A stretch of DNA of 64,000 bases. Origin: an uncultured Candidatus Saccharibacteria bacterium. GTDB taxonomy: Bacteria > Patescibacteriota > Minisyncoccia > Phycocordibacterales > UBA2100. A program made the translations under genes and the position numbers. A model generated the notes under the pieces. The model made no database searches and had not been told where the DNA came from. It was given only the letters and a program-made list of their open reading frames with translations. Of the stretch, positions 1 through 35,091 are shown in pieces (within the stretch, counting starts at the first letter, position 1; each line of letters opens with the position of its first letter). The DNA is taken from assembly GCA_964586255.1 (NCBI GenBank), contig CAZPGE010000002.1:42065-106064 (forward strand), given 5' to 3'.

Positions 1-1239
1 CCCGACACGGGCGCCGAGGAGACTCGCCCTTCAGTCGACGACGGGCCGTTTGCCGCGCTGGTCTTCAAGCTCCAGACCGACCCATTCGTGGGCGCGCTCA
101 CCTTCTTCCGTGTCTACTCTGGCTCTATCAACACGGGCGATACGGTATACAACTCCGCCAACAACAAGCGCGAGCGCATCGGCCGCATGGTGCGCCTTCA
201 GGCGGACAAGCGCGAGGAAATAAAGTCGGTCTACGCCGGTGAAATCGCTGCTGTCGTCGGTATGAAGGAGGTGAAAATCGGTCACACGCTCTGCGATGCA
301 GACCACCCGATTGCACTCGAATCGATCGTGTTCCCTGAACCGGTTGTCTCGATGCGCGTCGAGCCGAAGACAAAGGCCGACCAAGAGAAGATGGGCATCG
401 CGCTCAGCAAACTTTCCGACGAAGACCCGACATTCCGCGTGCACTCCGACCCCGAGACGATGGAAACTATCATCTCAGGCATGGGCGAGCTCCATCTCGA
501 CATCATCGTCGACCGCATGAAGCGCGAGTTCGCGGTGGAAGCGACGACCGGTAAGCCGCAGGTCGCGTACCGCGAGACGATTCAGGGCACTTCCGATGTG
601 GAATACAAGCACATCAAGCAGACAGGTGGTCGCGGTCAGTACGGTCACGTGAAAATCAAGGTGAAGCCGCTTGAGCCAATCGTGGAAGGCGAAAAGATAA
701 AGAACAATGTTGACCGCGAAGATCACTTCGAGTTCGTCAACAACATCAAGGGTGGCGTCATTCCTCAGGAATACATTCCGGCAGTCAAAAAGGGCCTCAA
801 AGAGGGAATGGAGCGCGGCGTGCTCGCCGGCTTCCCACTCGTCGATGTATCGGTAGACCTCTACGATGGTAGCTACCACGATGTGGACTCTTCGGAAATC
901 GCTTTCAAGCTCGCTGCTCTCTATGCATTCCAGGAGGGTTTACAGAAAGCCAAGCCCGTCATCCTTGAGCCAATCATGAAGCTGGAAGTCGTCATGCCGG
1001 AGAAGTTCATGGGTGATGTGACCGGCATGATCAACTCGAAACGCGGCACCATCGAAGCGATGGGAGAGCGCGGCCAGGCGCGCGTAGTCACCGCAAAGGT
1101 CCCGCTCTCGGAAATGTTCGGATTCACTACGCAGCTCCGCTCTCTCACTGAGGGTCGCGGCGTCCCAAACCTCGAGTTCTCTCACTACGCCGTCGTCCCG
1201 CGCAACGTCCAGGATGAGATCGTCGCTTCCAGAAAGTAA
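1..1239 (+). CDS. fusA: Elongation factor G, C-terminal ~410 aa (5' end lies upstream of the window; frame 1 is open from base 1)
   Basis: Translation [41 protein letters not shown]... matches EF-G domains II-V. Ends TAA at 1237-1239. A GC hairpin follows. Confidence 0.95.
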
Positions 1240-1260
1240 TACCACTCAGCATACGGAGTG

Positions 1261-1285
1261 CGCGACCCCGCTGTGCGGGGTCGCG
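1261..1285 (+). terminator. Perfect GC-rich hairpin CGCGACCCCG-ctgt-GCGGGGTCGCG followed by a T-rich tract; likely fusA terminator
   Basis: Inverted repeat read directly. A TATACT -10-like hexamer (1286-1291) lies just upstream of the next ATG (1299). Confidence 0.5.
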
Positions 1286-1298
1286 CTATACTGTTTTC

Positions 1299-3968
1299 AT
1301 GTTTAAAAAAGCCGCAGGAGCTCTTGCGATGTTCGCTCTCCTCGCTCCATCCTTAGCGTCTGCCGAGTGTCCCACGCTTTCCCTTGGTTCCACCGGCGCA
1401 CACGTAACAGCAGTACAAGCAGTGCTGCAAAGTGCATATACCAACTTCCCGACGCCGACTGGGTACTTTGGTCCTCTTACGCTCGCTGCAGTTAAGCAAT
1501 GGCAAGAAGAGCATGGCATTGAGCCAGTAGGCGCGGTGGGACCAAAGACTGCCACTGCGATGAAGCTCTCGTGCACCACAGAGACACCAGTCACTTCTCC
1601 TACCGCGACTGCACCAAGCAATCCTGCGGCCACCCCTTCGGCAAGCCCAGAACAAGTTCGCACTCTCGTGCGTGGTCTCTCGGGTTCTGACGTCCTTACA
1701 CTCCAACAGTTCCTCATCGCACAGAAGCTCCTTACTGCCGAGAATGCCACGGGCTTCTTCGGCGCACTCACAGAAGCGGCGGTGAAAGCATTCCAATCTC
1801 AAAACAAGCTCGTCTCAATCGGCGCGCCAAGTACGACCGGCTATGGGGCGGTGGGGCCGAGGACACGGGGTGCGATGGCCCTCACAAGCACGGGGAACGG
1901 GGAAAAAGTATCAGGTAATACGACAACGACTGCGTACCTTCTTCCCACGTCGACCACATACGTACCGCCAACACCGCCAATCGTTCCACTAACACCAACC
2001 TCGCCAATCGTCCCGCAGGCTCCATCTTCATGCAGCTTTAACGGTCAATCGATTGCATCCGGAGCCACAGTGAGCGCATATCAATCAGCCTCCGTTGCTT
2101 CCGGGAGTCAGTGCGTCTCGCAAGCGCGTACTTGTACGAACGGGACGCTTAGTGGCTCGTATACAAACGCGGGTTGTACGGTTGCAGGATTACCGGCACC
2201 AAGCTGCACCATTTCCTACACACCGTCTAGTGTGTCGAGCGGCCAGCCCTACGTGATTAACTGGACCTCACAAAACGCCACCTCGCGCCTCTATTCCGTG
2301 AAGAAGCCCGACGGAACATATCTGGTACAAAACGGCGGCGTGAGCGTAGGTACCGGAAGCTATACAGACACGACTGCAAGCGCGCAACTCTCGCCCGGCA
2401 CCTATACTCGTACTGATACTGTGACGGGAGCCGGTGGAACTGCCACGTGTACTGCGACCATCGCCGTCGCTGCCTCCGCGTCCGCAAATTCATGCACGCT
2501 CAACGGTCAAACCGTCGCGCATGGAGCGAGCGTAATTGCATATCAAGCCCCGTCCGTCGCATACGGGAATCAATGCGTGTCCCAAACGCGCACATGCGCA
2601 AACGGTACACTCAGCGGGTCGTATGCCAATGCGGCTTGCACGGTGGCGGCAGCCCCTCAATTGCCAATCGTAGTCCAGACCTCATCATCAGCAACAGGAT
2701 ACCCCGCCAGCAATATGCTCGACGGCTCTGCTTCGACCGCATGGGTCGCATCGCTTCAGCCTATAGGCGTAAATAACTTTGCATGGATCCAACTCGATTT
2801 GGGCTCGCGACGCTATGTAGATAAGGTTGAATGGACGTCAGCATCACAGCCGTACCCCGCGAGCGTTCTCAAAAATTACGTAATTAAAGTATCCGACGAC
2901 GGCGCCGTATGGACACCAATCGTCGCGCATTTCGAACCGCACACTGCGGCGCCTGCGTACGTGCAAAAAAAATCGATAGGCAAAAACGCGCGCTATATCA
3001 GAATCGAGACGACCAAGGTCAACGATGGGACTGGCTGGGCAGCAAGTATCGCCGAACTTTCAATCACGAGTGAGCCACAAAAAGATCTGTCATACACGTG
3101 CGATATTACGATCACACCGTCAGAGGATTACATCACTCGTATCGGTTCTCTTCGTGGGGGTACCGCGGAGCGTTGGACAAACGTGTGTTTGCAACCCGGC
3201 ACGTACACCAGCGCCGTGCGCATCCATGATGCACAATATCTTCGGATCTTGGCACCAAGTGGCGGAGTCACTTTCACTGCCTCTGTTAGGTACGTTGCGG
3301 GCAACTCGGCACCTTTCAATGTATGGGATTCGCACGACATACATATACAGGACATCAAGATAATAAACACCTATGCGTACACCACGACTGCCGATTCAAC
3401 CTCGCAATGGTCGCATGCGCTGAGAATTGCTCGCACCAACAATCTGACCTTGGAGAAGGTTGATTTGGTTTCAAACGGGAAGCAGGCGGTCTATATGGAA
3501 AGCAGCGATAATATACTCTTCAATGGCGGCTCTATTAAAGGCTACTACTTCCTCTTTAGTCCTGCGGATAAGAATTCCATCTACACCTACAACACCACTT
3601 TCACAACCGACGGCAGTGTGCAAATACCTGGCGATGAACATTCGATGCTTTGGATCGACGCCGGGGATGTCGTTTTGGATAGTAGCTATTTCAACATGAT
3701 TACCGGCAAAGGTTTATTTACCGGCGGCGGCGGCACACATAGCCGACTCGTAATAACGGGTGCGACACGAGCATCGGGTCTCAGTCACTGGGCAGATAAC
3801 CATCAAAATTACAGCAACATGCACGTCTACGTGACCGGAGCGTATCCGGCGCTAACTCCTTTCTACAATTATGCCGACGGGGGGAATGCGGCGAATTCCT
3901 TTGTGTGCACGTATTCTGGCGCTTCAGCCCCGCTGAGCGCAATAGGATGTTCGTATCCACTCAGATAA
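1299..3968 (+). CDS. Secreted multidomain protein (889 aa)
   Basis: N-terminal signal peptide MFKKAAGALAMFALLAPSLASA. Two PG_binding_1-like repeats (...GYFGPLTLAAVKQWQEEHGIEPVGAVGPKT...). Thr/Pro-rich linker. Two internal Cys-containing repeats (CSFNGQSIASGATVSAYQ...CTNGTLSGSYTNAGCTV / CTLNGQTVAHGASVIAYQ...CANGTLSGSYANAACTV). An F5/8-type-C (discoidin)-like segment (...SNMLDGSASTAWVAS...NNFAWIQLDLG...). C-terminal beta-helix-like region. Confidence 0.75.
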   Translation: MFKKAAGALAMFALLAPSLASAECPTLSLGSTGAHVTAVQAVLQSAYTNFPTPTGYFGPLTLAAVKQWQEEHGIEPVGAVGPKTATAMKLSCTTETPVTSPTATAPSNPAATPSASPEQVRTLVRGLSGSDVLTLQQFLIAQKLLTAENATGFFGALTEAAVKAFQSQNKLVSIGAPSTTGYGAVGPRTRGAMALTSTGNGEKVSGNTTTTAYLLPTSTTYVPPTPPIVPLTPTSPIVPQAPSSCSFNGQSIASGATVSAYQSASVASGSQCVSQARTCTNGTLSGSYTNAGCTVAGLPAPSCTISYTPSSVSSGQPYVINWTSQNATSRLYSVKKPDGTYLVQNGGVSVGTGSYTDTTASAQLSPGTYTRTDTVTGAGGTATCTATIAVAASASANSCTLNGQTVAHGASVIAYQAPSVAYGNQCVSQTRTCANGTLSGSYANAACTVAAAPQLPIVVQTSSSATGYPASNMLDGSASTAWVASLQPIGVNNFAWIQLDLGSRRYVDKVEWTSASQPYPASVLKNYVIKVSDDGAVWTPIVAHFEPHTAAPAYVQKKSIGKNARYIRIETTKVNDGTGWAASIAELSITSEPQKDLSYTCDITITPSEDYITRIGSLRGGTAERWTNVCLQPGTYTSAVRIHDAQYLRILAPSGGVTFTASVRYVAGNSAPFNVWDSHDIHIQDIKIINTYAYTTTADSTSQWSHALRIARTNNLTLEKVDLVSNGKQAVYMESSDNILFNGGSIKGYYFLFSPADKNSIYTYNTTFTTDGSVQIPGDEHSMLWIDAGDVVLDSSYFNMITGKGLFTGGGGTHSRLVITGATRASGLSHWADNHQNYSNMHVYVTGAYPALTPFYNYADGGNAANSFVCTYSGASAPLSAIGCSYPLR

Positions 3969-4061
3969 TCCACTCAATACGTCATGCGCCCATCGTCGTT
4001 TCATATTGAAATCTATTGCCACGTTTCTTCTGCGCGGCCTTTGCGGTGATACTATAAAAGA

Positions 4062-4649
4062 ATGTCGCTTCGCTCAGTGATTCTCTTGGTGCTCGCAGTC
4101 GCATTTGTTCCGCAGCTCACTTTTGCTGTGCTCAAAATCAACGATGCGGTCACCATCAACGGCGACCTTACGGTGACGGGCGCCCTGAGCAAGAGCTCCG
4201 GCTCATTTGTCATCGACCACCCCCTCGACCCGAAGAATAGACTGCTCTATCACTCGTTTGTCGAATCAGAAGATGTGATGAACACGTATGCCGGTCGCGC
4301 AACGCTCGACGCAGACGGCAGTGCGACGATACGCCTCCCGAGCTACTTTATGTCGCTCAACAAAGATTTTCGCTACTTTGCAACGCCGGTCGGGCAATCG
4401 ATGCCAAATTTGCACCTCTCTATAGGGGTCAAGCCGCAGTTTCTCGGACTCTTCGGCGAGCCGATATTCTCAATCTCAGGCGGGAACGCTGGTGGACAAG
4501 TAAGCTGGATGGTGACCGGTATCCGCCACGATCCGTATATTCTTGCAAACCCAATCATCCCTGAAGTCCAAAAAGGTTTGAGCGCGCCCTACTCACAGGG
4601 GATGTATGTGCACCCCGAGCTCTATGCGCCGTCTGCACAGCAAGAATAG
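4062..4649 (+). CDS. Secreted protein with a conserved ~150-aa domain (paralog 1 of 3)
   Basis: Signal peptide present. Domain ...IDHPLDPKNRLLYHSFVESEDVMNTY...MPNLH...SWMVTGIRHDPYILANPIIPEV... is shared with the next two genes. Confidence 0.7.
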   Translation: MSLRSVILLVLAVAFVPQLTFAVLKINDAVTINGDLTVTGALSKSSGSFVIDHPLDPKNRLLYHSFVESEDVMNTYAGRATLDADGSATIRLPSYFMSLNKDFRYFATPVGQSMPNLHLSIGVKPQFLGLFGEPIFSISGGNAGGQVSWMVTGIRHDPYILANPIIPEVQKGLSAPYSQGMYVHPELYAPSAQQE

Positions 4650-4650
4650 T

Positions 4651-5199
4651 ATGAGGAAATTCTTGGTATTCAGCGTTGTTATCTTCGTCGCGCTCGCAAG
4701 TGCGCCGCTTGCACGCGCGGCGCTCACTATCAACGCAAATTTTCTGGCAAAGAGCACTTTCTCAATCACGGGCTCAGTCTCAAAGGGTGCGGGGACGCTG
4801 GTCATCGACCATCCGCTCGACCCAAAAAACAAACTGCTCTACCACTCATTCGTCGAGTCGCCGGATGCCATGAATCAATACAACGGCATTGCGGCTCTCG
4901 ATGAGAATGGCGAAGCAACCATTCAGCTACCGGATTATTTCGAAGCGCTCAATATGAAATTTACCTATCAATTTTTCCCGATGCATGAGGCAATGCCGAA
5001 CCTGCACATTAAACAAAAGATTCAGGACAACGCGTTTACTATCGGGGGCGGGATCCCTGGTGGTGAGATTTCTTGGATGGTCACCGGTATTCGCCACGAC
5101 CCGTACATCCTCGCGAACCCAATTATTCCCGAGGTAGAGAAGGGCCCGGACCAGCTTGTCGACAAGGGTGAGTGTATTTTTGCTCCACTATGCAAATAA
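4651..5199 (+). CDS. Secreted protein, paralog 2 of the same domain family (likely start MRKFLVFS at 4651; the ORF-track start 4606 overlaps the upstream gene)
   Basis: Signal peptide MRKFLVFSVVIFVALASAPLARA. ...IDHPLDPKNKLLYHSFVESPDAMNQY...EISWMVTGIRHDPYILANPIIPEVEKGPDQLV... Confidence 0.7.
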   Translation: MRKFLVFSVVIFVALASAPLARAALTINANFLAKSTFSITGSVSKGAGTLVIDHPLDPKNKLLYHSFVESPDAMNQYNGIAALDENGEATIQLPDYFEALNMKFTYQFFPMHEAMPNLHIKQKIQDNAFTIGGGIPGGEISWMVTGIRHDPYILANPIIPEVEKGPDQLVDKGECIFAPLCK

Positions 5200-6578
5200 A
5201 ATACTTCAGCACGATCTTCGCGATGTTTTTTCTTGCCATACCGGTATCCGCTTCTGCAACCACTATTTTTCTTACCTCCGGCAGCAGTTGGACTGTCCCT
5301 TCCGATTGGGGCACGCCTAATTCCGTCGAATGTATCGCCGCCGGCGGAGGAGGCGGTCGCGGCGGAGGAGGCGCAGGCGGTGGTTACGCCAAAGCGGTAA
5401 ACATATCTCTTACGGCAGGCAGTAGCGTCAGCATAAGTGTGGGCACTGGCGGCGCAGGCAATCTGGGCGGCACGGGTGGTACGGGTGGAACAACATCATT
5501 CGGCAGTGCATGTAGTGCAGGCGGCGGAACGGGCGGGCTGGACGGTTACAACAACACTGGCGCAGGCGGTACCGGAGGCAGTGGAACCGTCGGTTCAACT
5601 TTGCGCACAGGCGGTAATGGTGGTGCGTACGGTGCAGGTTTACCGGGGACCGGAGGTGGTGGCGGTGGCGCAGCGGGAGCTAGTACTAACGGCACCTCAG
5701 GTAGTGCTGGTGTTGGCTTCGCTACCTCTGGTGGCAATGGTGGCGCTGGCGGAGGAGGATCTGGTGGTAGCGGAGGTGCAGGTGCCACTACTATAGGTGC
5801 CGCTGGTGCTGCTGGCGGTACCGGGACTAACTACGATGCCTCTCATGGCTCAGGTGGCGGCGGGGGCGGGGGTCAGGGAAGCTATTGGAGTCCCGGTTAC
5901 AATGCAGGTAACGGCGGCGCCGGCGGCTCGTATGGCGGCGGGGGCGGAGGCGGAGGTCAGGGTTATACCATTGACGGCACAGGCGGGAATGGAGGTGCGG
6001 GACTTATTATCGTCACCTATACACCAAGGTTGCCCTCAGCAAGTCGCGATCTCACGGTGAATGATTCGGTCTCTGTTGCGGGCAATGTCACGGTGGTCGC
6101 CAATCTTGCGAAGGGCTCTGGCACGTTCCTCATCGACCATCCGGCAGATCCCGCCAACAAACTTCTCTATCACTCTTTTGTAGAATCTCCTGATGCGCTC
6201 AATGAGTACGCAGGCACAGCTGAGGTCGGGAAGAATGGTGACGTGGCCATACGACTTCCGGATTATTTTGAAGCGCTCAATGGCAATCCGCAGTATTTTA
6301 TTCGAGCGCTCGATATGCCGATGCCCAATCTCTTCGTCAAACAAGAAGTAAAAGATAATGAATTTGTAGTTGGAGGCGGAAGTCCTGGCGGCGAGATTTC
6401 TTGGATGGTCACCGGTATTCGCCACGACCCGTACATTCTGGCCAATCCCATCATTCCCGAAGTTGAGAAAGGCCCGGACCAGCTCGTTGGCAAAGGGGAG
6501 TATGTGTTTGCGGGGAATGCGCCGACGTGTTCGACGCTCGCTCGTTGTGTGTGGGATTTCATGAGACGGTTCTTCTAG
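5190..6578 (+). CDS. Glycine-rich secreted protein ending in paralog 3 of the 150-aa domain
   Basis: Signal peptide. ...SGSSWTVPSDWGTPNSVECIAAGGGGGRGGGGAGGGY... Long GGxGG low-complexity region. C-terminal ...IDHPADPANKLLYHSFVESPDALNEY...EISWMVTGIRHDPYILANPIIPEVEKGPDQLV. ATG 5190 overlaps the upstream stop. Confidence 0.7.
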   Translation: MQIKYFSTIFAMFFLAIPVSASATTIFLTSGSSWTVPSDWGTPNSVECIAAGGGGGRGGGGAGGGYAKAVNISLTAGSSVSISVGTGGAGNLGGTGGTGGTTSFGSACSAGGGTGGLDGYNNTGAGGTGGSGTVGSTLRTGGNGGAYGAGLPGTGGGGGGAAGASTNGTSGSAGVGFATSGGNGGAGGGGSGGSGGAGATTIGAAGAAGGTGTNYDASHGSGGGGGGGQGSYWSPGYNAGNGGAGGSYGGGGGGGGQGYTIDGTGGNGGAGLIIVTYTPRLPSASRDLTVNDSVSVAGNVTVVANLAKGSGTFLIDHPADPANKLLYHSFVESPDALNEYAGTAEVGKNGDVAIRLPDYFEALNGNPQYFIRALDMPMPNLFVKQEVKDNEFVVGGGSPGGEISWMVTGIRHDPYILANPIIPEVEKGPDQLVGKGEYVFAGNAPTCSTLARCVWDFMRRFF

Positions 6579-6603
6579 ACGCACCTGTACCCAATCGTGC
6601 GCA

Positions 6604-6625
6604 AAATCCCTCTTGCGAGGGATTT
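6604..6625 (+). terminator. Hairpin AAATCCCTC-ttgc-GAGGGATTT
   Basis: Inverted repeat directly after the 6578 stop. Followed by TATACT and the next start. Confidence 0.45.
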
Positions 6626-6639
6626 GGTGATTTATACTA

Positions 6640-7122
6640 GTGTGTATGGATGATCGACGAGAGCTCCTCATCGGCATGGCTGCAATCGCAATATTTGCGG
6701 TCTGCATATACCTGCTCGCAAACATGGGCAAAGCTCCCGCTTCTCCCGCTGATACGATTCCTGCAGCGACACCGATTCCTCCGTACACTGAAAAGATAGA
6801 AGCCGCGCTCGCAAAGAGTGAGGGCTTCGAGATGTTTGTTTCCTACACCGACCGTGGATTCGAGCCTATGAGTACTACAATAAAAAAGGGGGACACGGTG
6901 CGCTTCACCAACAATTCGCCGCGCAAGCTCTGGATAGCGGCGAGCTCCGAAGGTGGCGTGAAGCTCTATCCGGGTACATCGGAGTGCGGCGCAAGCGCAT
7001 TTGGCACCTGCGAACCACTCGAGCCACAAGAATTCTGGGAATTTACATTTACAGAGACTGGTACGTGGAAGTATCACAACAGTCTCAACAAGAGTGATGC
7101 CGCCTCCATACGGGTCCAATGA
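6640..7122 (+). CDS. Small membrane-anchored protein with a possible cupredoxin-like beta domain
   Basis: N-terminal TM helix. ...KKGDTVRFTNNS...WEFTFTETGTWKYHN... resembles a cupredoxin/EfeO-like fold, but the ligand set is unclear. Stop overlaps the next start (ATGA). Confidence 0.45.
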   Translation: MCMDDRRELLIGMAAIAIFAVCIYLLANMGKAPASPADTIPAATPIPPYTEKIEAALAKSEGFEMFVSYTDRGFEPMSTTIKKGDTVRFTNNSPRKLWIAASSEGGVKLYPGTSECGASAFGTCEPLEPQEFWEFTFTETGTWKYHNSLNKSDAASIRVQ

Positions 7123-9080
7123 GAAAATATCTTTTTGTTTTTTTTCTCATATTTTTCCCGCAAATCGCATTTGCGGGTTCGCAGACGTATTCATCGCAAG
7201 GGTCATACACGTTTACGGTGCCAGCTAGTACGTACAGTGTCACCATGCAGATGTGGGGCGGCGGTGGTGGGGCCGGGGGATATGATGCATTGGACCCAGG
7301 ATCGGGCGGGGGCGGAGCCTATACGACCGGTGCCATCACGGTGGTGCCTGGGCAACAAATAACTGTTGTTGTCGGCGGACCAGGGGGTGGAGGCGTGAGT
7401 TGCGCTGCAGGCGGGCCAGGAGGTGCGGGCGGATACAACGGCGGTGCTTCTGGCGGTGCGTCAGGCCCCTATGGCTGTTCTGGTGCCGGCGGCGGTGGGG
7501 GAGGTGCCAGCAGTGTAATCGTAAATGGCGTCACAACTCTTGTAGCCGGTGGCGGTGGCGGAGGTGGAGGTGGTGGCTGGCATGCAGTCGGCGGAGCTGG
7601 CGGTGTTGGTGGAGCGAGCGGTGCAAGCGGCAATGTCACGACTGGCGGAGCAGGAGAGGCACATTCGTTTGACGGTGGTGGCGGCGGCGGAGGAGGTGGA
7701 GGCATAGCTGCTGGCGGCGGCGGAGGAATTGCGGGATGCGACTGCGGTGGTACCGGTGGTACCGGTGGTTCATCGCTCGGCACCGTGACACAAGGCTCAG
7801 GTATATACCCTGGAAATTATGGCAGCTCAGGTGGTTATGGATATGGGGGGCAGACGTATGGTCAATCCGGAACGTCGGGTAGAATCGACGTCACGTGGAC
7901 AGTGACCGCCCCCACCTGCTCCGTCACTCTCACACCCTCCACCATCGGATACGGTTCTTCCTCCACGCTCACCTACTCTTCTACCAACGCGACCACTCTC
8001 TATATAAACAACATCGGGTACGTGAGCACGAGTGGGGGAAGCACATCAGTCTCGCCATCGTCAACGACAAATTATTCATGCACAGCCACCGGTCCGGGGG
8101 GCACGGGCACGCAAGCGGCATCGCTCACCGTGACAGCACCGTCTGTCCCATCCGCCACCATCACCGCAAGTTCTTCTGCTATATACGTCGGACAATCGAC
8201 AGGTATCCGTGCGACATTTGCTGCCGGTTCCGGTGACACACTCACCGGAGACAACATAGATTCGCCAGTCGGCACCGGTCTCGGTGCGTCGACCAACCCC
8301 GACGCCAACAAGTGGTACACATTCACGCCATCTTCCGCGGGCACGTACACGTTCTACGCTCGCGCAAAGAGTGCGTACTACACGTCGTGGACCACATACG
8401 GCACCGTAGCGGTCACCGTGACGGCGGCACCCGCGTGCACACTCTCGCTCACTCCCTCCACCGTCGCACAGGGAAATTCATCTACACTCGCATACTCGTC
8501 GAGCAACGCGACTACATTCTCTGTGAGTAGCATTGGCTCTCTCACGCCCAACATCTCCGGGAGCACCAGTGTGTCTCCGAGTGTCTCCACCACCTACACG
8601 GGTAGTGCCACCGCCGGGGGAGTCACCAATACCTGCTCCGCCACCCTCTCTGTCTCCTGCACCGCCGCATACTCCTGCTCAAGTCAGACCATCCAGTACA
8701 CTGACGCCGCGTGTGCAGTCTCCGACGTCACCACCTGTGCCTCTCCGGCATTCTGCTCGAGCGGCTCCGCGACCTGTCTCTACGCACCCGTCGAGTACGT
8801 CGCAAGCGGAAGCCTCACTGGTCACCTCCAAGCAGCACCACAAATCGTCACGCAAGGAACAGCCACGAGGCTCTACTGGAATCTCAGCAACGTAGAGAGC
8901 TGTACCGTCACCGGTACCAACGGTGACTCATACTCCGGTGCTGCTTCTCCCACAGGAGGACGACAGACCTCCACGATTGAGCAACAGACCATCTACACCC
9001 TTTCCTGTGCTGGCTCCGACGGCTCCAGTGTGCAGGAGACACAGACCGTGAATATACTGCCGGTGTTTAATGAGCAATGA
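7119..9080 (+). CDS. Glycine-rich surface protein with tandem Ig-like domains (653 aa)
   Basis: Signal peptide MRKYLFVFFLIFFPQIAFAGSQTYSSQGSYTFTVPASTYSVTMQMWGGGGGAGG... C-terminal 389 aa are identical to the next gene. Ig-like repeats (..TLTPSTIGYGSSSTLTYSSTNAT..YSCTATGPGG..). Ends ...NILPVFNEQ. Confidence 0.7.
   Translation: MRKYLFVFFLIFFPQIAFAGSQTYSSQGSYTFTVPASTYSVTMQMWGGGGGAGGYDALDPGSGGGGAYTTGAITVVPGQQITVVVGGPGGGGVSCAAGGPGGAGGYNGGASGGASGPYGCSGAGGGGGGASSVIVNGVTTLVAGGGGGGGGGGWHAVGGAGGVGGASGASGNVTTGGAGEAHSFDGGGGGGGGGGIAAGGGGGIAGCDCGGTGGTGGSSLGTVTQGSGIYPGNYGSSGGYGYGGQTYGQSGTSGRIDVTWTVTAPTCSVTLTPSTIGYGSSSTLTYSSTNATTLYINNIGYVSTSGGSTSVSPSSTTNYSCTATGPGGTGTQAASLTVTAPSVPSATITASSSAIYVGQSTGIRATFAAGSGDTLTGDNIDSPVGTGLGASTNPDANKWYTFTPSSAGTYTFYARAKSAYYTSWTTYGTVAVTVTAAPACTLSLTPSTVAQGNSSTLAYSSSNATTFSVSSIGSLTPNISGSTSVSPSVSTTYTGSATAGGVTNTCSATLSVSCTAAYSCSSQTIQYTDAACAVSDVTTCASPAFCSSGSATCLYAPVEYVASGSLTGHLQAAPQIVTQGTATRLYWNLSNVESCTVTGTNGDSYSGAASPTGGRQTSTIEQQTIYTLSCAGSDGSSVQETQTVNILPVFNEQ
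7911..9077 (+). repeat. Copy 1 of a perfect 1167-bp direct repeat (offset 1808 bp)
   Basis: Nucleotide identity from cccacctgctccgtcactctc... to the last sense codon. All internal six-frame ORFs are duplicated with identical translations. Divergence only at the stop (TGA vs TAG). Confidence 0.9.
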
Positions 9081-10888
9081 AAAAGTATCTCTTCATTCTT
9101 TTGTGCGTGTTTCTTCCGCAGGTTGCACTTGCGGGTTCGCAAACGTATTCGACTCCCGGCAGCTACTCTTTTACCGTGCCGTCGCATGGGACGCTTACAG
9201 TTACGGTGTGGGCCGGTGGTGGAGGAGCCAGCAACTATTATGCCGCCAACTATCCTGGACAAGCCGGTGGAACGTCATCTTTCAATGGAAGTGTAGTGGC
9301 ATACGGAGGCGCAACGAGCGACGTGTGCGGTTTCGGCGCTGGCGCGGGAGGAACCGCCTCGGGAGGAGACAGTAATTATACGGGTGGTGCGGGTGGTGCG
9401 GGCTCCGGGAAATCAGTCGGAGGAGTTGGAGGAAATGGCGCAAACGGTGGTGGAGCCGGGGGAGCTTATGATTACTCTACACTCAATGGTCTCCCTGGAA
9501 GCGCGCCAGGTGGCGGTGGAGCGGGACGCGCGGGCTGTGACGGCGCTGGCGGTGGCGGCGCTTCGGTTAAGACATACACATCTGGCCAACTCACCGTAGG
9601 CGGCTCCGTGTCTGTGGTTGTCGGTGCCGGTGGAGTCGCGGGGGTTGCCCCTATTTCATTGTCGGCTGGTGCCGGAGCGCCTGGTCAGGTCACCATCACC
9701 TGGACTGACCCACCTGTACCCACCTGCTCCGTCACTCTCACACCCTCCACCATCGGATACGGTTCTTCCTCCACGCTCACCTACTCTTCTACCAACGCGA
9801 CCACTCTCTATATAAACAACATCGGGTACGTGAGCACGAGTGGGGGAAGCACATCAGTCTCGCCATCGTCAACGACAAATTATTCATGCACAGCCACCGG
9901 TCCGGGGGGCACGGGCACGCAAGCGGCATCGCTCACCGTGACAGCACCGTCTGTCCCATCCGCCACCATCACCGCAAGTTCTTCTGCTATATACGTCGGA
10001 CAATCGACAGGTATCCGTGCGACATTTGCTGCCGGTTCCGGTGACACACTCACCGGAGACAACATAGATTCGCCAGTCGGCACCGGTCTCGGTGCGTCGA
10101 CCAACCCCGACGCCAACAAGTGGTACACATTCACGCCATCTTCCGCGGGCACGTACACGTTCTACGCTCGCGCAAAGAGTGCGTACTACACGTCGTGGAC
10201 CACATACGGCACCGTAGCGGTCACCGTGACGGCGGCACCCGCGTGCACACTCTCGCTCACTCCCTCCACCGTCGCACAGGGAAATTCATCTACACTCGCA
10301 TACTCGTCGAGCAACGCGACTACATTCTCTGTGAGTAGCATTGGCTCTCTCACGCCCAACATCTCCGGGAGCACCAGTGTGTCTCCGAGTGTCTCCACCA
10401 CCTACACGGGTAGTGCCACCGCCGGGGGAGTCACCAATACCTGCTCCGCCACCCTCTCTGTCTCCTGCACCGCCGCATACTCCTGCTCAAGTCAGACCAT
10501 CCAGTACACTGACGCCGCGTGTGCAGTCTCCGACGTCACCACCTGTGCCTCTCCGGCATTCTGCTCGAGCGGCTCCGCGACCTGTCTCTACGCACCCGTC
10601 GAGTACGTCGCAAGCGGAAGCCTCACTGGTCACCTCCAAGCAGCACCACAAATCGTCACGCAAGGAACAGCCACGAGGCTCTACTGGAATCTCAGCAACG
10701 TAGAGAGCTGTACCGTCACCGGTACCAACGGTGACTCATACTCCGGTGCTGCTTCTCCCACAGGAGGACGACAGACCTCCACGATTGAGCAACAGACCAT
10801 CTACACCCTTTCCTGTGCTGGCTCCGACGGCTCCAGTGTGCAGGAGACACAGACCGTGAATATACTGCCGGTGTTTAATGAGCAGTAG
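9077..10888 (+). CDS. Glycine-rich surface protein, paralog with a different N-terminal domain and identical C-terminal half (603 aa)
   Basis: MKKYLFILLCVFLPQVALAGSQTYSTPGSYSFTVPSHGTLTVTVWAGGGGA... ATGA overlap with the upstream stop. The 3' 1167 bp are identical to 7911..9077. Confidence 0.7.
   Translation: MKKYLFILLCVFLPQVALAGSQTYSTPGSYSFTVPSHGTLTVTVWAGGGGASNYYAANYPGQAGGTSSFNGSVVAYGGATSDVCGFGAGAGGTASGGDSNYTGGAGGAGSGKSVGGVGGNGANGGGAGGAYDYSTLNGLPGSAPGGGGAGRAGCDGAGGGGASVKTYTSGQLTVGGSVSVVVGAGGVAGVAPISLSAGAGAPGQVTITWTDPPVPTCSVTLTPSTIGYGSSSTLTYSSTNATTLYINNIGYVSTSGGSTSVSPSSTTNYSCTATGPGGTGTQAASLTVTAPSVPSATITASSSAIYVGQSTGIRATFAAGSGDTLTGDNIDSPVGTGLGASTNPDANKWYTFTPSSAGTYTFYARAKSAYYTSWTTYGTVAVTVTAAPACTLSLTPSTVAQGNSSTLAYSSSNATTFSVSSIGSLTPNISGSTSVSPSVSTTYTGSATAGGVTNTCSATLSVSCTAAYSCSSQTIQYTDAACAVSDVTTCASPAFCSSGSATCLYAPVEYVASGSLTGHLQAAPQIVTQGTATRLYWNLSNVESCTVTGTNGDSYSGAASPTGGRQTSTIEQQTIYTLSCAGSDGSSVQETQTVNILPVFNEQ
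9719..10885 (+). repeat. Copy 2 of the 1167-bp direct repeat
   Basis: Same as copy 1. Confidence 0.9.
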
Positions 10889-11124
10889 GGTTGGGGCCTC
10901 TGCGGAGAGGTTTTCTTGACGCTCACACCTCGTTTGCTAGTATGTGCCCACGCACGCTCTGTGCGTTTCTTTCTTGTCCTGCGTAGCCTTGCGCGAAGCA
11001 GGATGCCGAAACTTCTTTCGTGCAGACTAGCAAACTGCGCCAAGCGATAGAAGAAGGAGGGGGAGAATACCGGAGCACCCAAACGCGTTGGCATTATAAA
11101 TTACTAGGCTAATACTATATTTGT

Positions 11125-12327
11125 ATGGCAGCAGAAGAATTCAATCGAACAAAGCCGCACGTGAACGTCGGTACGATTGGTCACGTCGACCACGGAAAGA
11201 CCACGCTCACTGCAGCAATCCTCACGGTGCTCTCGAAGGCCGGCCAAGGCTACGGTGCTACGGTGAAGGGCGTCGATGACATCGACAAGGCGCCGGAAGA
11301 AAAGGCGCGCGGTATTACCATCTCGCTCTCGCACTCCGAGTACGAGACGCCGACGAGACACTACGCTCACGTCGACGCTCCTGGTCACGCCGACTACATT
11401 AAGAACATGATCACCGGTGCCGCCCAGATGGACGGCGCAATCCTCGTCATCGCAGCGTCGGACGGCGTCATGCCTCAGACACGCGAACACGTCCTCCTCG
11501 CCAAGCAGGTCGGCGTGCCAAAGATGATCGTCTTCCTCAACAAGGTAGACCAGGTGGACGACAAAGACCTCATCGACCTCGTCGAAGAGGAAGTCCGCGA
11601 CTTGCTCGAGAAGCAGGGCTTCGACGGCAAGAACACTCCGATAATCCGCGGCTCAGGCCTCAAGGCTCTCGAGAATCCGGAGCAGGGCAACGAGTGGTCG
11701 GACAAGGTCATGGAGCTCATCAAGGCGCTCGATGAATACATCCCAACACCGGAGCGCGACACCGCAAAGCCATTCCTCATGGCTATCGAAGACGTCTTCT
11801 CAATCGAAGGCCGCGGCACCGTCGTCACGGGCCGCATCGACCGCGGTATCGTGAAGGTCGGCGAAGAAGTTGAAATCATCGGTATTCACGACACAGCCAA
11901 GACGACTGTGACGGGTGTCGAAATGTTCAACAAGTCTCTCCAGCAGGGGCAGGCCGGCGACAACGCAGGCATCTTGCTCCGCGGTACCAAGAAAGACGAC
12001 GTCCACCGCGGACAGATTCTCGCGAAGCCGGGCTCTGTGAAGCCGCACACTGAATTCGAGGCAGAGGTATACATCCTCTCCAAGGAAGAAGGCGGTCGTC
12101 ACACTCCGTTCTTCTCGGGCTACAAGCCACAGTTCTACGTCCGCACCACGGACGTGACGGGCGAAGTGACCCTCAATGAGGGCGTAGAGATGGTGATGCC
12201 GGGCGACACCGTGACCTTCAAGGTCAAGCTCGTCGCTCCCATCGCCCTCGAAGACCAGATGCGCTTCGCAATCCGCGAAGGCGGCAAGACCGTCGGCGCA
12301 GGCGTCGTGACCAAAATCACCGCCTAA
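11125..12327 (+). CDS. tuf: Elongation factor Tu
   Basis: [18 protein letters not shown] and NKVD motifs. Full-length 400 aa. Confidence 0.97.
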
Positions 12328-12457: not shown

Positions 12458-12488
12458 TGTGCACAATTCGTGACAATATATGTGCACA
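12458..12488. promoter_or_regulatory. Two copies of palindromic TGTGCACA (12458-12465, 12481-12488) plus related TGCACA motifs upstream of the fic gene; candidate operator
   Basis: Seen directly: tatgtgcacaattcgtgacaatatatgtgcacataa. Confidence 0.35.
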
Positions 12489-13594
12489 TAAGATTTATGG
12501 TATTTAACCCCCAGACACCCTTTCAAGAGCTTCCAAATATTCCACCAGAGGAAGAGCTTTTTAACGATATTTCGATATTGAAGCTAGTGAATAAGGCCAA
12601 CAGTTCATTACACGAACTGAAGGGAGCTGCGCACGTGCTCCCGAATCGTTTTATGCTCATGTCCCCATTTTCGATTCGCGAAAGCGTGGCGAGCAACAGT
12701 ATAGAGAACATTCACACGACAGTAGCTGACGCCTTGAAGGCAGATGCTCTTTACAAAGAGTCAACAGTTAAAGGGGCGAACAAGGAAACGTTGAATTATC
12801 GAGACGCGCTCATGGCAGGCTACCGACGACTAACAGAGAATGGTTTTCTCAATACAAATGACTTCATACATATACAATCGATACTCGAACCCCAGAAACA
12901 GGGAATACGCAACGTTCCAGGCGTTGCTATAAGAAATTCTGTCACGAAAGCAGTGATATATACGCCACCTGAGGGGCCTGAGCTACTCCGATCGAAACTC
13001 AAGAATCTTGAGGATTATTTCAACAGCAAGAATGGTTTTGATGACGTGGATCCGCTTATTCGAGCGGCCATTTTGCATTATCAGTTCGAGGCGATACATC
13101 CATTTCTGGACGGAAATGGAAGAACAGGAAGAATAATCCTTGTGCTGTACCTGATTGCTGTCGGAGGGCTCGATTTGCCCGTGCTCTTCCTCAGTAAATA
13201 CCTTCTAGACCACCGTGAAGATTATTACCGGCTACTTCTGAAGGTCAGCGCGGAGAATGACTGGAAAGAATGGGTCACTTTCATGCTTAAGGCTATTGAC
13301 GAGCAAGCTAAGGAAACAAGACAAAGAATCATGCAAATCAAACGCTTGATGGAGGAGTATAGGCACATTGAAGAAAGGCGAGGGTCGGCGATTATGACGG
13401 CGAAAATGATGAACTACCTCTTCGCAAACCCCTACTACACTGTCAAAACAATGACAGAAACACTGGGTGTGCATCGCAACACAGCTCGACACTATTTCGA
13501 CGAGTTACAGAGGTTGGAAATCGTCAAGAAGTTTAAGGATGGGAGAGAAAACGTTTACTACAATCAGAAATTCCTGGACATACTGAATAGCTAA
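12470..13594 (+). CDS. Fic/Doc family protein (AMPylation-type), C-terminal wHTH-like region; alternative start 12497
   Basis: Canonical Fic motif HPFLDGNGRTGR. Confidence 0.85.
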   Translation: MTIYVHIRFMVFNPQTPFQELPNIPPEEELFNDISILKLVNKANSSLHELKGAAHVLPNRFMLMSPFSIRESVASNSIENIHTTVADALKADALYKESTVKGANKETLNYRDALMAGYRRLTENGFLNTNDFIHIQSILEPQKQGIRNVPGVAIRNSVTKAVIYTPPEGPELLRSKLKNLEDYFNSKNGFDDVDPLIRAAILHYQFEAIHPFLDGNGRTGRIILVLYLIAVGGLDLPVLFLSKYLLDHREDYYRLLLKVSAENDWKEWVTFMLKAIDEQAKETRQRIMQIKRLMEEYRHIEERRGSAIMTAKMMNYLFANPYYTVKTMTETLGVHRNTARHYFDELQRLEIVKKFKDGRENVYYNQKFLDILNS

Positions 13595-17984: not shown

Positions 17985-19436
17985 GTGATGCCAGGTAAAG
18001 AAACAGTTGTCCGCTTCGAAGATGTCACCTTCGAGCATGGGCCCAAGCGGCCCATTCTTGATGAAGTGAGTTTCGGTGTGAAAAAAGGCGCGAAGCTCAC
18101 GCTCATGGGACAAAACGGCGCGGGGAAGAGCACCATATTCGGTCTCATCACCAAACACCTGCATCCAGAGGAGGGCGTCATCCATGTCTCACATGGGCTC
18201 TCGATAGCCACGGCGCGGCAGGTTATCCCGCGCGCGGAGCTCGCGCTTACCGTGCGCGAATTCTTTGAGAAGATGTTTCCGAAGAAGATATACGACATCG
18301 ACCCGCGTATCGACAAGGTGCTCGAGGTGGTGCATCTCCATGCACCCAAAGAGCGCACGGTGGGCTCTTTTTCGGGCGGGCAGCAGGCAAGGCTCCTGCT
18401 TGCTTCGGCGCTCATCCAGGAGCCCGACCTCCTCCTCCTCGACGAGCCGACCAACAATCTCGACAAAGAGGGAATCGCGCACCTGACTGATTTCCTCGTG
18501 AAGTACGACAAGACCGTCATTGTGATTTCGCACGATGCCGACTTCCTCAACGCATTCACACACGGAGTCCTCTATCTCGATGTGTTTACGCGCAAGGTAG
18601 AGCAATACGTGGGCAACTACTTCGATGTGATGGACCAAATAGCCGACCGCATCGAAAAGGAAAACATGAAGAACGCGCAGTTGGCCAAGACAATTATCGA
18701 AAACAAGGAGAAAGCCAACTTTTTTGCACACAAAGGCGGGCAGATGCGCCTCGTGGCTAAGCGTATGCGCGCAAAGGCCGAGGAAGCGGAGGAAAATATG
18801 GTGGATGTGCGCAAAGAAGACAAGACCATCAAGGATTTCAAGATACCCGTGCAAGACGGTCTCTCGGGCGAGCTCATATCCATCACGTCATTCAAAGTGA
18901 TTCGCGACCACAAGCCGCACATTAAAAAGAAATCAGTCGCACTCCGAAAGAATCAGCACCTTCTGCTCTCCGGTCCCAACGGTATCGGCAAATCGACGCT
19001 GCTTGAATCTCTCGCGAGTGGTACCGCGGAAGGTGCAGTCATCGCGCCGGGCGTCAAAGTGGGCTACTACCGCCAAGATTTCTCAAATCTCGATTTCGAT
19101 GCGACGGTGCACGACATCCTCTGGCACACGATGCCAAAGGGATATGAGGAAGAGCTGCGCGCTACCGCCGCGAGCTTCTTGCTTACCGGTGATCTCGTCC
19201 ACACCAAAATTGGCCATCTCTCGGAGGGGCAGAAGGGGCTGGTCGCATTTGCGCGTCTCGTGCTTCTGAAGCCTGGCCTCCTCATCCTCGACGAGCCGAC
19301 CAACCATATCAACTTCCGCCATCTTCCTGTCATCGCCAAAGCACTCGATGCCTATGAGGGCGCCATGATACTGGTCTCGCACGTACCAGAATTCGTCTCT
19401 CAAATCCGTATCGACGAGAAGCTCGAGCTCGCTTAG
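17985..19436 (+). CDS. ABC-F family ATPase (two ABC domains, no TMD; EttA/Uup-like)
   Basis: Two Walker A motifs (GQNGAGKST, GPNGIGKST). Two signature/Walker B motifs (LSGGQQ...LLLLDEPTNNLD, LSEGQKG...LLILDEPTNHIN). Confidence 0.85.
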   Translation: MMPGKETVVRFEDVTFEHGPKRPILDEVSFGVKKGAKLTLMGQNGAGKSTIFGLITKHLHPEEGVIHVSHGLSIATARQVIPRAELALTVREFFEKMFPKKIYDIDPRIDKVLEVVHLHAPKERTVGSFSGGQQARLLLASALIQEPDLLLLDEPTNNLDKEGIAHLTDFLVKYDKTVIVISHDADFLNAFTHGVLYLDVFTRKVEQYVGNYFDVMDQIADRIEKENMKNAQLAKTIIENKEKANFFAHKGGQMRLVAKRMRAKAEEAEENMVDVRKEDKTIKDFKIPVQDGLSGELISITSFKVIRDHKPHIKKKSVALRKNQHLLLSGPNGIGKSTLLESLASGTAEGAVIAPGVKVGYYRQDFSNLDFDATVHDILWHTMPKGYEEELRATAASFLLTGDLVHTKIGHLSEGQKGLVAFARLVLLKPGLLILDEPTNHINFRHLPVIAKALDAYEGAMILVSHVPEFVSQIRIDEKLELA

Positions 19437-34830: not shown

Positions 34831-35091
34831 ATGGTCGCCGTACATATTGCGTATTCGCGAACGCGCGCCATATTTCGCGGAATATCGACCGTATTCCTCA
34901 TGGTATCGGGCTTTTTCTTGATTTTCTTTAGCGCACCTCGCGTCCCGGGCATGTCGGATATTTCTGATGTCGGAGTAGCACATGCCGATGCTCCTGTGGA
35001 TCCTAACGCCTGTACCGACGGCACCGTCCCTGTCGATTATTTTGTCTATGTCGACCCTGGCTGTGGCTGTGGCTGTGGCTGTGGCATCTAA
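34831..35091 (+). CDS. Candidate RiPP precursor-like peptide 2 (86 aa from MVAVHIAY; a possible internal start MSDISDVG would give a 46-aa peptide)
   Basis: GGGGG RBS. ...FLMVSGFFLIFFSAPRVPGMSDISDVGVAHADAPVDPNACTDGTVPVDYFVYVDPGCGCGCGCGI*. Divergent from YcaO-2, 48 bp between starts. Confidence 0.5.
   Translation: MVAVHIAYSRTRAIFRGISTVFLMVSGFFLIFFSAPRVPGMSDISDVGVAHADAPVDPNACTDGTVPVDYFVYVDPGCGCGCGCGI

Follow-up and report, generated by a model that had tools for sequence, protein, structure and literature searches.

In E. coli and most bacteria, the str operon runs rpsL-rpsG-fusA-tufA and is followed by the S10 operon. Loci for variable surface structures can also sit amid conserved core genes: dexB and aliA bound the pneumococcal cps locus, and galF and gnd bound the O-antigen locus of E. 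coli. Among phages, tail fibres such as Pam3 gp24 (PDB 7YPX) and S16 gp38 carry glycine-rich domains (Pfam Gly_rich_2, PF21722), and Pam3 gp24 uses its TNF-like as well as its glycine-rich domains in host recognition (PMC9608196). Cultivated Saccharibacteria reportedly attach to their hosts via type IV pili (PMC9894109, PMC12206443).

The window analysed here, a stretch of 64,000 nucleotides from an uncultured, ultra-small Candidatus Saccharibacteria bacterium that is a Patescibacterium of the Paceibacteria type, holds seven genes (orf1 to orf7) between fusA and tuf. The genes for S12, S7, EF-G, EF-Tu, S10 and L3 have the order and orientation of the classical str operon, and the strand and order of S12-S7-EF-G-EF-Tu are retained when the window is read together with the ENA contig L082, which carries a complete fusA (713 aa). 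Unlike in the classical operon, every junction has been opened: S7|fusA by 4.1 kb, fusA|tuf by 9.9 kb, tuf|S10 by 7.2 kb, and S10|L3 by 20 kb. The fusA|tuf junction is not a special one in this genome. A further difference is that fusA is followed by a terminator-like hairpin and tuf is preceded by a promoter-like region. The analysis itself shows which genes are present, that their position is conserved, which folds are predicted, and that these signals exist in the sequence. The reading that we favour, as probable though far from settled, is that the block forms an island of cell-surface proteins, conserved in the lineage yet diversifying rapidly, at a junction whose two genes, fusA and tuf, came to be transcribed independently.

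By analogy, the island would resemble the cps and O-antigen loci in its fixed position, conserved bounding genes, divergent content among relatives, and surface-exposed products. The cargo of those loci is polysaccharide synthesis, whereas here it consists of adhesin-like protein genes, and the flanks, unlike theirs, encode translation factors; the likeness covers position and content, not cassette exchange. With the phage fibres the island proteins share GGGGxGG-type motifs, as in gp24 (PMC9608196), and the N-terminal domain of orf4, scanned alone, passes the Gly_rich_2 threshold (25.3 bits, cut-off 24.3). In contrast to gp24 and S16 gp38, the island domain is N-terminal, behind a Sec signal peptide, and followed by Ig-like domains in orf6 and orf7; there is neither an N-terminal helical shaft nor a neighbouring tail-fibre chaperone, and the proteins are cellular rather than part of a virion. 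The domain typified by orf2 has its closest known counterparts in the C-terminal tip domains of the Pam1 tailspike (7EEA) and the R2 pyocin fibre (6CU2/6CL6) and, unlike these tips, is either a free-standing secreted protein of ~190 aa or fused to a glycine-rich domain. Compared with the type IV pili of Saccharibacteria, the island would serve the task presumed for both, by which an ultra-small episymbiont recognises its host, and it differs in having no pilus genes.

Gene content of the fusA-tuf gap

The left border of the gap is the 3' part of fusA (EF-G domains II-V; 1..1239, + strand; Pfam EFG_III, EFG_IV, EFG_C, and EF-G_D2). The right border is a complete tuf (EF-Tu, 400 aa; 11125..12327, + strand; Pfam), whose product is identical to a protein of the ENA contig L001. 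The spacer measures 9885 bp (1240 to 11124), well above the ~150 bp after the fusA stop within which tuf was counted as contiguous, and the list of ORFs and translations places seven + strand ORFs in it (1299-10888). Where two starts were available, the likely true ones are 4651 rather than 4606 (orf3), 5190 rather than 5172 (orf4), and 6646 rather than 6640 (orf5). We regard the ORFs as real genes because the orf2 family counts at least 1296 homologues in databases, orf7 has 86, and relatives of orf5 were found at 63 metagenome loci. At their start, six of the seven combine a charged n-region with a hydrophobic core and an AxA-type site, and orf5 begins with a signal-anchor helix; these sequence features suggest that all of the products are Sec-exported. 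The earlier note had described seven same-strand genes for secreted or surface proteins, a three-member domain family among them, and ATGA overlaps at 7119 and 9077, and all of this is borne out. Secreted proteins of unknown function are, more broadly, common in these genomes.

The first gene, orf1 (889 aa; 1299..3968, + strand), encodes a signal peptide, two PG_binding_1 domains, Cys-containing repeats, an F5/8 type C (discoidin) domain, and, at the C-terminus, a possible beta-helix. It matches endolysin wall-binding domains in PHROG and a CBM32 module in the PDB (E = 2.8e-4), and its product may bind both peptidoglycan and carbohydrate. Of the domains previously read into it, the peptidoglycan-binding and discoidin ones stand, whereas the beta-helix is weakly indicated, by a Pfam Beta_helix match below the cut-off (E = 0.0025; 17.9 bits, cut-off 25.9) and a weak match to pertactin (E = 0.07). 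An exact-sequence look-up returned no match for orf1 or orf5; for orf1 this is due to differences in gene starts, since the DNA itself is identical in the contigs L082-L085.

The next three genes are closely packed. The product of orf2 (195 aa; 4062..4649, + strand) consists of a signal peptide and a beta-sandwich domain whose family is large and uncharacterised. Its paralogue orf3 (182 aa; 4651..5199, + strand), 51% identical and also with a signal peptide, starts 1 nt past the orf2 stop. The start of orf4 (462 aa; 5190..6578, + strand) overlaps the end of orf3 by 10 nt, and the protein has a signal peptide and a glycine-rich domain and ends in an orf2-type domain that is 51-60% identical to orf2 and orf3. 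It matches PHROG 863; its scFv matches in a search of solved-structure sequences were discarded as glycine-linker artefacts. No family in Pfam, NCBIfam, or PHROG covers the orf2-type domain. In viruses it is the closing domain of tail-fibre or tail-spike proteins, and in viral contigs it ends tail-fibre-like proteins of 522-1026 aa; homologues of orf2-4 occupy a non-ribosomal locus in one Kaiserbacteria and one Adlerbacteria MAG. All three proteins would bear a lectin-like domain that viruses put at the tip of the tail fibre.

The last three genes are joined by the ATGA overlaps. The product of orf5 (158 aa; 6646..7122, + strand) has an N-terminal membrane anchor and a cupredoxin-like domain that lacks the conserved copper ligands, with plastocyanin matches that are weak and limited to the level of the fold. 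A blue copper cupredoxin was rejected, as the alignment has no invariant His and its two invariant Cys lie outside the ligand loop. The stop of orf5-type genes also overlaps or abuts the start of the next gene in four other contigs (L093, L094, L099, and L127), and the orf5 family is a conserved partner of the glycine-rich proteins; orf5 itself may be their membrane-anchored partner, translationally coupled to them. The first of these proteins here, orf6 (653 aa; 7119..9080, + strand), has a signal peptide, a glycine-rich domain, and an Ig-like tail. The second, orf7 (603 aa; 9077..10888, + strand), starts with a signal peptide and a TNF-like/glycine-rich region (about 19-210), continues with three Ig-like domains and a Cys-rich segment, and ends in a beta-sandwich. 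Both match PHROG 2155 (E = 2e-23 for orf6, 1e-12 for orf7). The Gly_rich_2 threshold is reached neither by orf7 (15 bits) nor by orf6 (no match), and searches of both against solved structures by sequence gave noise only; homologues of both are annotated with PF21722, and the fold predicted for the glycine-rich domain has the TNF-like sandwich and glycine-rich lattice of the Gly_rich_2/tail-fibre domain. One homologue (P0198) joins Gly_rich_2 with a pilin N_methyl domain. [quoted passage not shown] By extension from gp24 (PMC9608196), these domains may bind a receptor on another cell.

Relatives and composition of the island

At least 12 contigs of close relatives (tuf 88-92% identical), all reached via homologues of orf7 and orf5 only, have a related island in this fusA-tuf junction too. 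The core of the island consists of two proteins, one membrane-anchored and cupredoxin-like, the other glycine-rich and Ig-tailed. In L094, whose fusA and tuf are 89% and 90.5% identical to those of the window, the order is fusA, orf5-like, orf7-like, a second orf5-like gene, tuf, and S10. L129 has a complete island of 7.0 kb, and partial islands lie beside fusA or tuf in L093, L097, L107, L111, L112, L115, L120, L131, L133, and L157. The flanks share 76-85% nucleotide identity with those of relatives, whereas the island is almost unalignable. Since relatives with an EF-Tu 88-92% identical share the island at the junction, its position is ancestral to a clade. The earlier note had held that relatives with the same arrangement as an ancestral state, and with orthologous housekeeping roles, would speak against an insertion; the comparison supports the ancestral position and not the housekeeping roles. 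Rather than having been freshly inserted, the island has long been part of the lineage and changes quickly.

Further away, none of the seven island proteins had a tblastn match in 80 fusA/tuf loci from GTDB species representatives. The adjacency of fusA and tuf, which had been taken as the norm, is supported outside the Patescibacteria, where seven of the eight loci have a spacer of ~20-100 bp and the other, L068, has one of ~1.5 kb. Across the Patescibacteria loci compared, the two genes are rarely contiguous. Nothing relevant on interrupted fusA-tuf junctions or on leaderless mRNAs in these bacteria came up in searches of the literature.

The GC content of the island (0.51-0.60, against 0.548 for the window) and its RSCU distances (0.107-0.158) are within the range of other genes. 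GC and GC skew mirror the amino-acid bias of the products, GGN runs on one side and Thr/Ser-rich Ig tails on the other; a foreign origin argued from GC or GC skew was rejected because this bias explains the composition. The comparison of codon usage and skew that had been suggested for recognising an atypical insert thus found usage typical of the window. In the assembly, a perfect direct repeat of 1166 nt (copy 1 at 7911..9076, copy 2 at 9719-10884, + strand; 100% identical) is shared by orf6 and orf7, and the C-terminal 405 aa of orf6 are 97% identical to orf7, with the repeat core identical. A diversity-generating retroelement as its source was rejected, the copy being perfect over 1166 nt and the ORFs scanned holding no reverse transcriptase. 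The island may have grown by tandem duplication (orf6/orf7) and accretion.

Proposed transcription units and alternative explanations

The hairpin after the fusA stop (1260..1286, + strand) has 12 bp, 11 of them GC pairs, and a predicted fold of -32.6 kcal/mol (z = -5.3). It is terminator-like, with an imperfect, interrupted T tract as its tail (TATACTGTTTTC). Directly behind it, a TATACT box resembling a -10 element (1287..1292, + strand) lies 6 nt before the ATG of orf1, without a Shine-Dalgarno sequence. Both signals had been seen before and are confirmed; the box may be the promoter of a leaderless orf1 mRNA. The same layout occurs in L111 and L115, strong hairpins follow fusA in four relatives (L094, L111, L115, and L131; z from -4.6 to -8.1), and those of L094 and L131 are canonical U-tract terminators. 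In the window, TATACT stands upstream of gene starts at 8 of 18 sites (1.6 expected), and its spacing to the ATG of orf1 recurs at orf5 and other unit-initial genes. A candidate extended -10-like box (TGATACTAT; 4047..4055, + strand) lies 6 nt before the ATG of orf2, and the orf1-orf2 spacer has no hairpin that stands out from shuffles. A terminator-like hairpin after orf4 (6604..6625, + strand; z = -3.4) precedes a TATACT box (6633..6638, + strand) 7 nt before the ATG at 6646. After orf7, the scan found a short hairpin and T tract forming a weak terminator-like site (10950..10976, + strand), and the orf7-tuf spacer as a whole folds no better than shuffles. The conserved motif upstream of tuf (CCGGAGCACCCAAACGCGTTGGCA; 11070..11116, + strand) comprises a TTGGCA resembling a -35 element, 17 nt, and AATACT 8 nt before the tuf ATG; it is kept in L093, L094, L120, and L129, and no common signal was seen in tuf upstream regions of the wider Patescibacteria. 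Overall, the region has no more matches to promoter and terminator consensus sequences than shuffles have, so the argument draws on the positions and conservation of the signals, not on match counts. From these we infer that the fusA transcript would stop at its own terminator, that the island would be transcribed as about three units (orf1; orf2-3-4; orf5-6-7) from TATACT-type promoters with little or no leader, and that tuf transcription would restart at its own conserved promoter region.

Alternatively, the seven genes could be co-transcribed with fusA and/or tuf, with the hairpin as an attenuator or processing site and adhesin expression tied to translation genes under growth-rate control. 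The common strand, the short spacers (60 nt after fusA), and the imperfect T tract would fit this, as would the presence of the same module between S10 and L3 in L152, and the conservation of position across the clade could mean selection for this expression context. We nevertheless regard it as unlikely, given the strength of the fusA hairpin, the clear terminators of L094 and L131, the TATACT boxes 6-7 nt before orf1 and orf5, and a conserved upstream motif that belongs to tuf itself; furthermore, GC3 is 0.51-0.65 in the island genes and 0.74-0.77 in fusA and tuf, so that the island lacks the codon bias of its highly expressed neighbours. Read-through from fusA and an embedding in one of the most highly expressed operons, both put forward in the earlier note, lose ground with it, as the hairpin looks like the terminator of fusA and is shared with relatives, and tuf has its own upstream motif.

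The resemblance of several island domains to phage receptor-binding proteins, and the variation of island content among relatives, could also be explained by a recent mobile or foreign island, or by a prophage or tailocin remnant with tail-fibre genes, inserted into the str operon. This is highly improbable, and the earlier view of the block as inserted, in the sense of a recent event, loses support with it: scans with Pfam, PHROGs, and NCBIfam found no gene for an integrase, transposase, terminase, capsid, or tail tube in the island, its borders have no direct or att-like repeats, a search of the window for Rfam families and tRNAs came back empty, the island's codon usage and GC are typical of the window, and the position is common to a clade. 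Moreover, every island protein has a Sec-type N-terminus, which is not expected of virion proteins, no relative of orf7 was found in the viral contig collection, and island homologues are abundant in Paceibacteria genomes, with the orf2-4 module located elsewhere in other members of that group. An assembly artefact, either a chimeric fusA-island-tuf join or an orf6/orf7 tandem wrongly resolved from a collapsed repeat, is very unlikely. It is suggested by two short-read ENA contigs that end exactly 140 nt (k-1) inside the 1166-nt repeat, at 8051 and 10744; no independent contig spans 8052-10743, and the tandem is a single resolution of an assembly repeat; orf7 as such is also absent from the protein collection (best match 77% identical). 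Yet one contig runs from S12-S7-fusA-orf1 through orf6 and another from the end of orf7 through tuf-S10, the stretch 625-5834 is identical in four further samples, and fusA-island-tuf arrangements and tandem pairs of paralogues occur independently in L093, L094, and L129. The tandem path also appears to be the only one that uses each piece once, since the unique 5' part of orf7 both follows and precedes the repeat.

Possible host attachment and conserved neighbourhoods

For a lineage-conserved, rapidly diversifying surface-protein island, the function, inferred like the surface location, would most plausibly lie in attaching the cell to a host cell or to a glycan on a surface, in line with what one would expect if this Patescibacterium is an episymbiont. 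A bolder proposal, which we think quite doubtful, is that fusA|tuf in this Paceibacteria clade, and S10|L3 in others, may be sites set aside for cassettes of host-attachment proteins that consist of phage receptor-binding modules, with the conserved flanks as homology arms; sets swapped by transformation and recombination would then switch host range in the manner of capsule and O-antigen loci.

The locus shows one of the most conserved bacterial gene neighbourhoods dismantled in this lineage, which bears on assumptions about marker-gene synteny and on checks of binning and assembly. It also brings out the ~190-aa orf2 family as a sizeable, uncharacterised group without a Pfam model that is common to cells and viruses. 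For host recognition in Patescibacteria, the island is a compact candidate toolkit that would comprise 1) a protein binding peptidoglycan and glycans; 2) lectin domains resembling tail-fibre tips; and 3) glycine-rich receptor-binding domains. Its variants should be simple to find, by inspecting the fusA-tuf gap across the clade.

Seven genes for predicted exported proteins between fusA and tuf

Seven plus-strand genes separate the 3' part of fusA (plus strand, EF-G domains II-V, stop at 1239; the window starts inside the gene) from a complete plus-strand tuf (400 aa, 11125-12327), both identified with Pfam. These are orf1 (889 aa, 1299-3968), orf2 (195 aa, 4062-4649), orf3 (182 aa, 4651-5199), orf4 (462 aa, 5190-6578), orf5 (158 aa, 6646-7122), orf6 (653 aa, 7119-9080) and orf7 (603 aa, 9077-10888). 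All seven products have an N-terminus in which a basic n-region is followed by a hydrophobic core, and six carry an AxA-type cleavage motif; orf5 resembles a signal anchor instead. ATGA overlaps join orf5 to orf6 and orf6 to orf7, a single nucleotide separates orf2 from orf3, and orf3 and orf4 share 10 nt. The ORFs are real genes, because homologues exist for the orf2 family (at least 1296), orf7 (86) and orf5 (relatives at 63 metagenome loci). The earlier note had described a block of same-strand, secreted-type genes with these two ATGA overlaps, and the Pfam borders, the ORFs, the N-terminal export features and the homologues bear it out. It had also described orf1 as a PG-binding, discoidin and beta-helix protein: two PG_binding_1 domains and an F5/8 type C (discoidin/CBM32-like) domain were found, while the C-terminal beta-helix is weakly indicated.

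The AlphaFold2 model of orf7 is confident (pLDDT 91.6) and orders a signal peptide, a Gly-rich N-terminal domain, three Ig-like sandwiches, a Cys-rich segment and a terminal sandwich. The orf4 N-terminal domain scores above the Pfam Gly_rich_2 threshold, and orf6 matches PHROG 2155 (E 2e-23). The orf6/orf7 family has a conserved end, P-[VI]-F-[ND]-E-Q-stop, in which P598 and E602 are nearly invariant (alignment A3 of the homologues); it occurs in orf6 (9057-9077), in orf7 (10865-10885), at 39312-39332 and in homologues, and may serve in sorting or anchoring, or may just be the final strand. The orf5 protein is a membrane-anchored cupredoxin-like domain lacking the conserved copper ligands, and the stop of orf5-like genes also overlaps or abuts the start of the next Gly-rich gene in loci L093, L094, L099 and L127. 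The orf2 family, whose domain recurs in orf3 and at the orf4 C-terminus, has no match among Pfam, NCBIfam and PHROG models. A homologous domain occurs in eight viral contigs (42-49% identical); whenever the carrier ORF is complete, the protein has 522-1026 aa and ends in this domain. PHROG matches link one carrier to a tail-fibre family and a second to a tail-spike family. The viral contig L163 encodes a Gly-rich-domain protein (...LLIGGGGGGG..., 265-978) and a tail-fibre-like protein with a terminal orf2-type domain (6900-8468), so that both kinds of island module are also found together in a virus.

Assembly, age and transcription of the island

The best EF-Tu matches (79-81%) are to MAGs named Kaiserbacteria, Adlerbacteria, Zambryskiibacteria and Campbellbacteria, which makes the organism a Paceibacteria-type Patescibacterium. 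That the arrangement is an assembly artefact, mainly in the orf6/orf7 duplication, is improbable. ENA sample ERZ27247837 provides two MEGAHIT contigs that match the window at 100% identity. The first covers S12, S7 and fusA and ends at window position 8051, and the second extends from 10744 across tuf and further, so that the fusA-island and island-tuf links are each backed by one contig. Four more samples yield identical sequence for 625-5834. Both contigs end exactly 140 nt (k-1) into a perfect direct repeat of 1166 nt (7911-9076 = 9719-10884). The tandem orf6/orf7 order, the sole path using every piece once, is a putative resolution of this repeat; tandem paralogue pairs are also present in relatives (L093, L129).

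A recent mobile insertion or a prophage remnant is less probable still. The word "inserted" holds relative to most bacteria, in which fusA and tuf are nearly adjacent (of eight loci from outside the Patescibacteria that an EF-Tu search retrieved, seven have a spacer of ~20-100 bp and one, L068, has ~1.5 kb), whereas here the island separates them; it fails as a recent event, given the absence of mobility marks and the relatives with the same position. Pfam, PHROG and NCBIfam scans of the island found no integrase, transposase or phage core gene, a tRNA scan found no tRNA, and no direct repeats flank it. The comparison of composition suggested earlier does not set the insert apart: in GC, GC3 and codon usage it falls inside the range spanned by the window's other genes, and the GC3 outliers are fusA and tuf themselves (0.74-0.77). 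Comparison with related genomes also argues against a recent event, since orf7 and orf5 homologues led to related islands at the same junction in close relatives. The NCBI MAG GCA_031291875.1 (L094; 89% identical in fusA, 90.5% in tuf) reads S12, S7, fusA, orf5-like, an overlapping orf7-like gene, a second orf5-like gene, tuf, three small genes and S10. A complete island of 7.0 kb is present at L129, a metagenome locus (fusA, orf5-like, orf6/7-like, orf5-like, orf7-like, tuf, S10). The tuf side is seen in L093, L097, L107 and L120 and the fusA side in L111, L112, L115, L131, L133 and L157, and these partial islands vary in their numbers of PG_binding, orf5-like and Gly-rich/Ig genes. Flanks are 76-85% identical to relatives in DNA and the island is almost unalignable, which together with the shared junction indicates a position ancestral to a clade and a rapid turnover of the island's content. 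The window's lineage has added the orf2-4 module; in one Kaiserbacteria and one Adlerbacteria MAG, tandem sets of homologues of this module lie near gap/rpiB, at a locus that is not ribosomal.

Co-transcription of the island with fusA and tuf, proposed earlier as read-through or fusA-coupled expression, is unlikely, though less so than either of the preceding alternatives. The hairpin after fusA (1260-1286; 12 bp, 11 of them GC) is much more stable than shuffles (z -5.3), and strong hairpins lie 3' of fusA in L094, L111, L115 and L131 (z -4.6 to -8.1), with canonical U tracts in L094 and L131. A TATACT box directly follows the hairpin, 6 nt before the orf1 ATG and without a Shine-Dalgarno sequence, a hairpin-TATACT layout common to L111 and L115; the same geometry precedes orf5 (hairpin 6604-6625, TATACT, 7 nt, ATG), and an extended -10-like TGATACTAT lies 6 nt before the orf2 start. 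An ORF of 90 aa or more begins 3-12 nt after eight of the 18 TATACT sites in the 64-kb window (1.6 expected, P about 8e-5), and five sites have an ATG 6-8 nt downstream (0.19 expected); total promoter and terminator consensus matches show no excess over chance. Upstream of tuf lie a -35-like TTGGCA, 17 nt, AATACT and 8 nt to the ATG. A motif of ~24 nt (11070-11093), CCGGAGCAC(T/C)CAAA-GCGTTGGCA, contains the -35-like TTGGCA, is conserved 5' of tuf in L093, L094, L120 and L129 at varying distance from the ATG, and may be a promoter or operator. Hairpin, boxes and tuf motif point to separate transcription units for fusA, island and tuf as the most likely arrangement, with the island most likely split into orf1, orf2-4 and orf5-7. 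fusA and tuf would then no longer be co-transcribed, the island occupying their junction.

TATACT or TGnTAnACT boxes stand 6-12 nt before starts, without a Shine-Dalgarno sequence, at 1287, 6633, 36992, 52680, 55316 and 60851, among others, which suggests that leaderless or very-short-leader mRNAs may be common in this genome; the literature searched contained no report of leaderless mRNAs in Patescibacteria. TGATATACT lies 6 nt before the ATG of a gene (55328-58135) for a 935-aa protein that weakly matches coupling proteins of type IV secretion (TraG-D_C, TrwB).

Other opened junctions

Neither in this genome nor in the phylum does the fusA-tuf junction have a special status. The str/S10 neighbourhood is opened as a whole (window 12328-39964; 895-5036 of L082, an ENA contig with complete fusA). 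Between S7 and fusA, 4.1 kb (L082 895-5036) is taken up by five genes, UDG and a PEMT-like gene among them; the 7.2-kb tuf-S10 gap holds Fic, RNase T-like, GT2-like and ABC-F-like genes and others; and the S10-L3 gap of ~20 kb includes a two-YcaO/nitroreductase cluster. At the end of the latter, just before the L3 cluster, lies a membrane-anchored paralogue of 344 aa (38301-39335), whose C-terminal 215 aa are 40% identical to the orf6/orf7 tail, and locus L152 has an orf5-like and orf7-like pair between S10 and L3. Among 34 Patescibacteria loci with both fusA and tuf, the spacer ranges from 0.13 to 6.3 kb (at most 250 bp in five, above 1 kb in 15) and its cargo is unrelated from locus to locus: secreted proteins of unknown function, a histidine kinase, an ABC transporter, giant ORFs. 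Three more loci, with the full 10 kb upstream of tuf, have other ribosomal or unrelated genes before tuf and no fusA.

Many more distant Patescibacteria have a small conserved ORF between fusA and tuf, or directly upstream of tuf where the locus lacks fusA (L021, 9579-9830; L024, L027, L029, L031, L041, L044, L065, L074). It encodes 80-125 aa (~180 aa in L029) with the N-terminal motif K..GDK.II.D..G.P..V.M....YE and has no Pfam match. The Fic-family gene directly downstream of tuf (12470-13594; Fic_N, Fic and SoFic-like C domains) is clearly poorer in GC (0.45) than the window on average (0.55). EF-Tu is a target of Doc toxins of the Fic/Doc family, which modify it, and a link between this gene and EF-Tu modification would be speculation. 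The ABC-F-like gene (17985-19436), immediately upstream of rpsJ on the same strand, encodes a two-domain ABC ATPase without a transmembrane part, which may be a translation factor. The RiPP-like cluster between S10 and L3 (22388-34783, minus strand) comprises two YcaO genes, a nitroreductase-family gene, a PQQ-type beta-propeller and a QueC-like ATPase; L094 likewise has a PQQ beta-propeller gene downstream of S10. A short (GGCTGT)n tandem run (~35053-35086) lies just upstream of a TPR gene at 35098.

Reading and significance

The reading with the best support is an island that keeps its position and evolves fast, and whose exported, adhesin-like proteins are composed of modules employed by phages in receptor binding. 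From the predicted folds, the most plausible function in a Patescibacterium would be to attach the cell to a host or to a glycan. Islands of variable surface proteins between conserved genes are already known, as is the glycine-rich domain family. What is new is that such an island lies within the str/S10 gene neighbourhood and is conserved across a Paceibacteria clade, together with a large unnamed orf2 family common to cells and viral tail fibres; we found no description of a surface island between fusA and tuf in the literature searched. The arrangement offers no new mechanism; it departs clearly from a gene order that is otherwise very conserved, and is a useful lead for host recognition in Patescibacteria.
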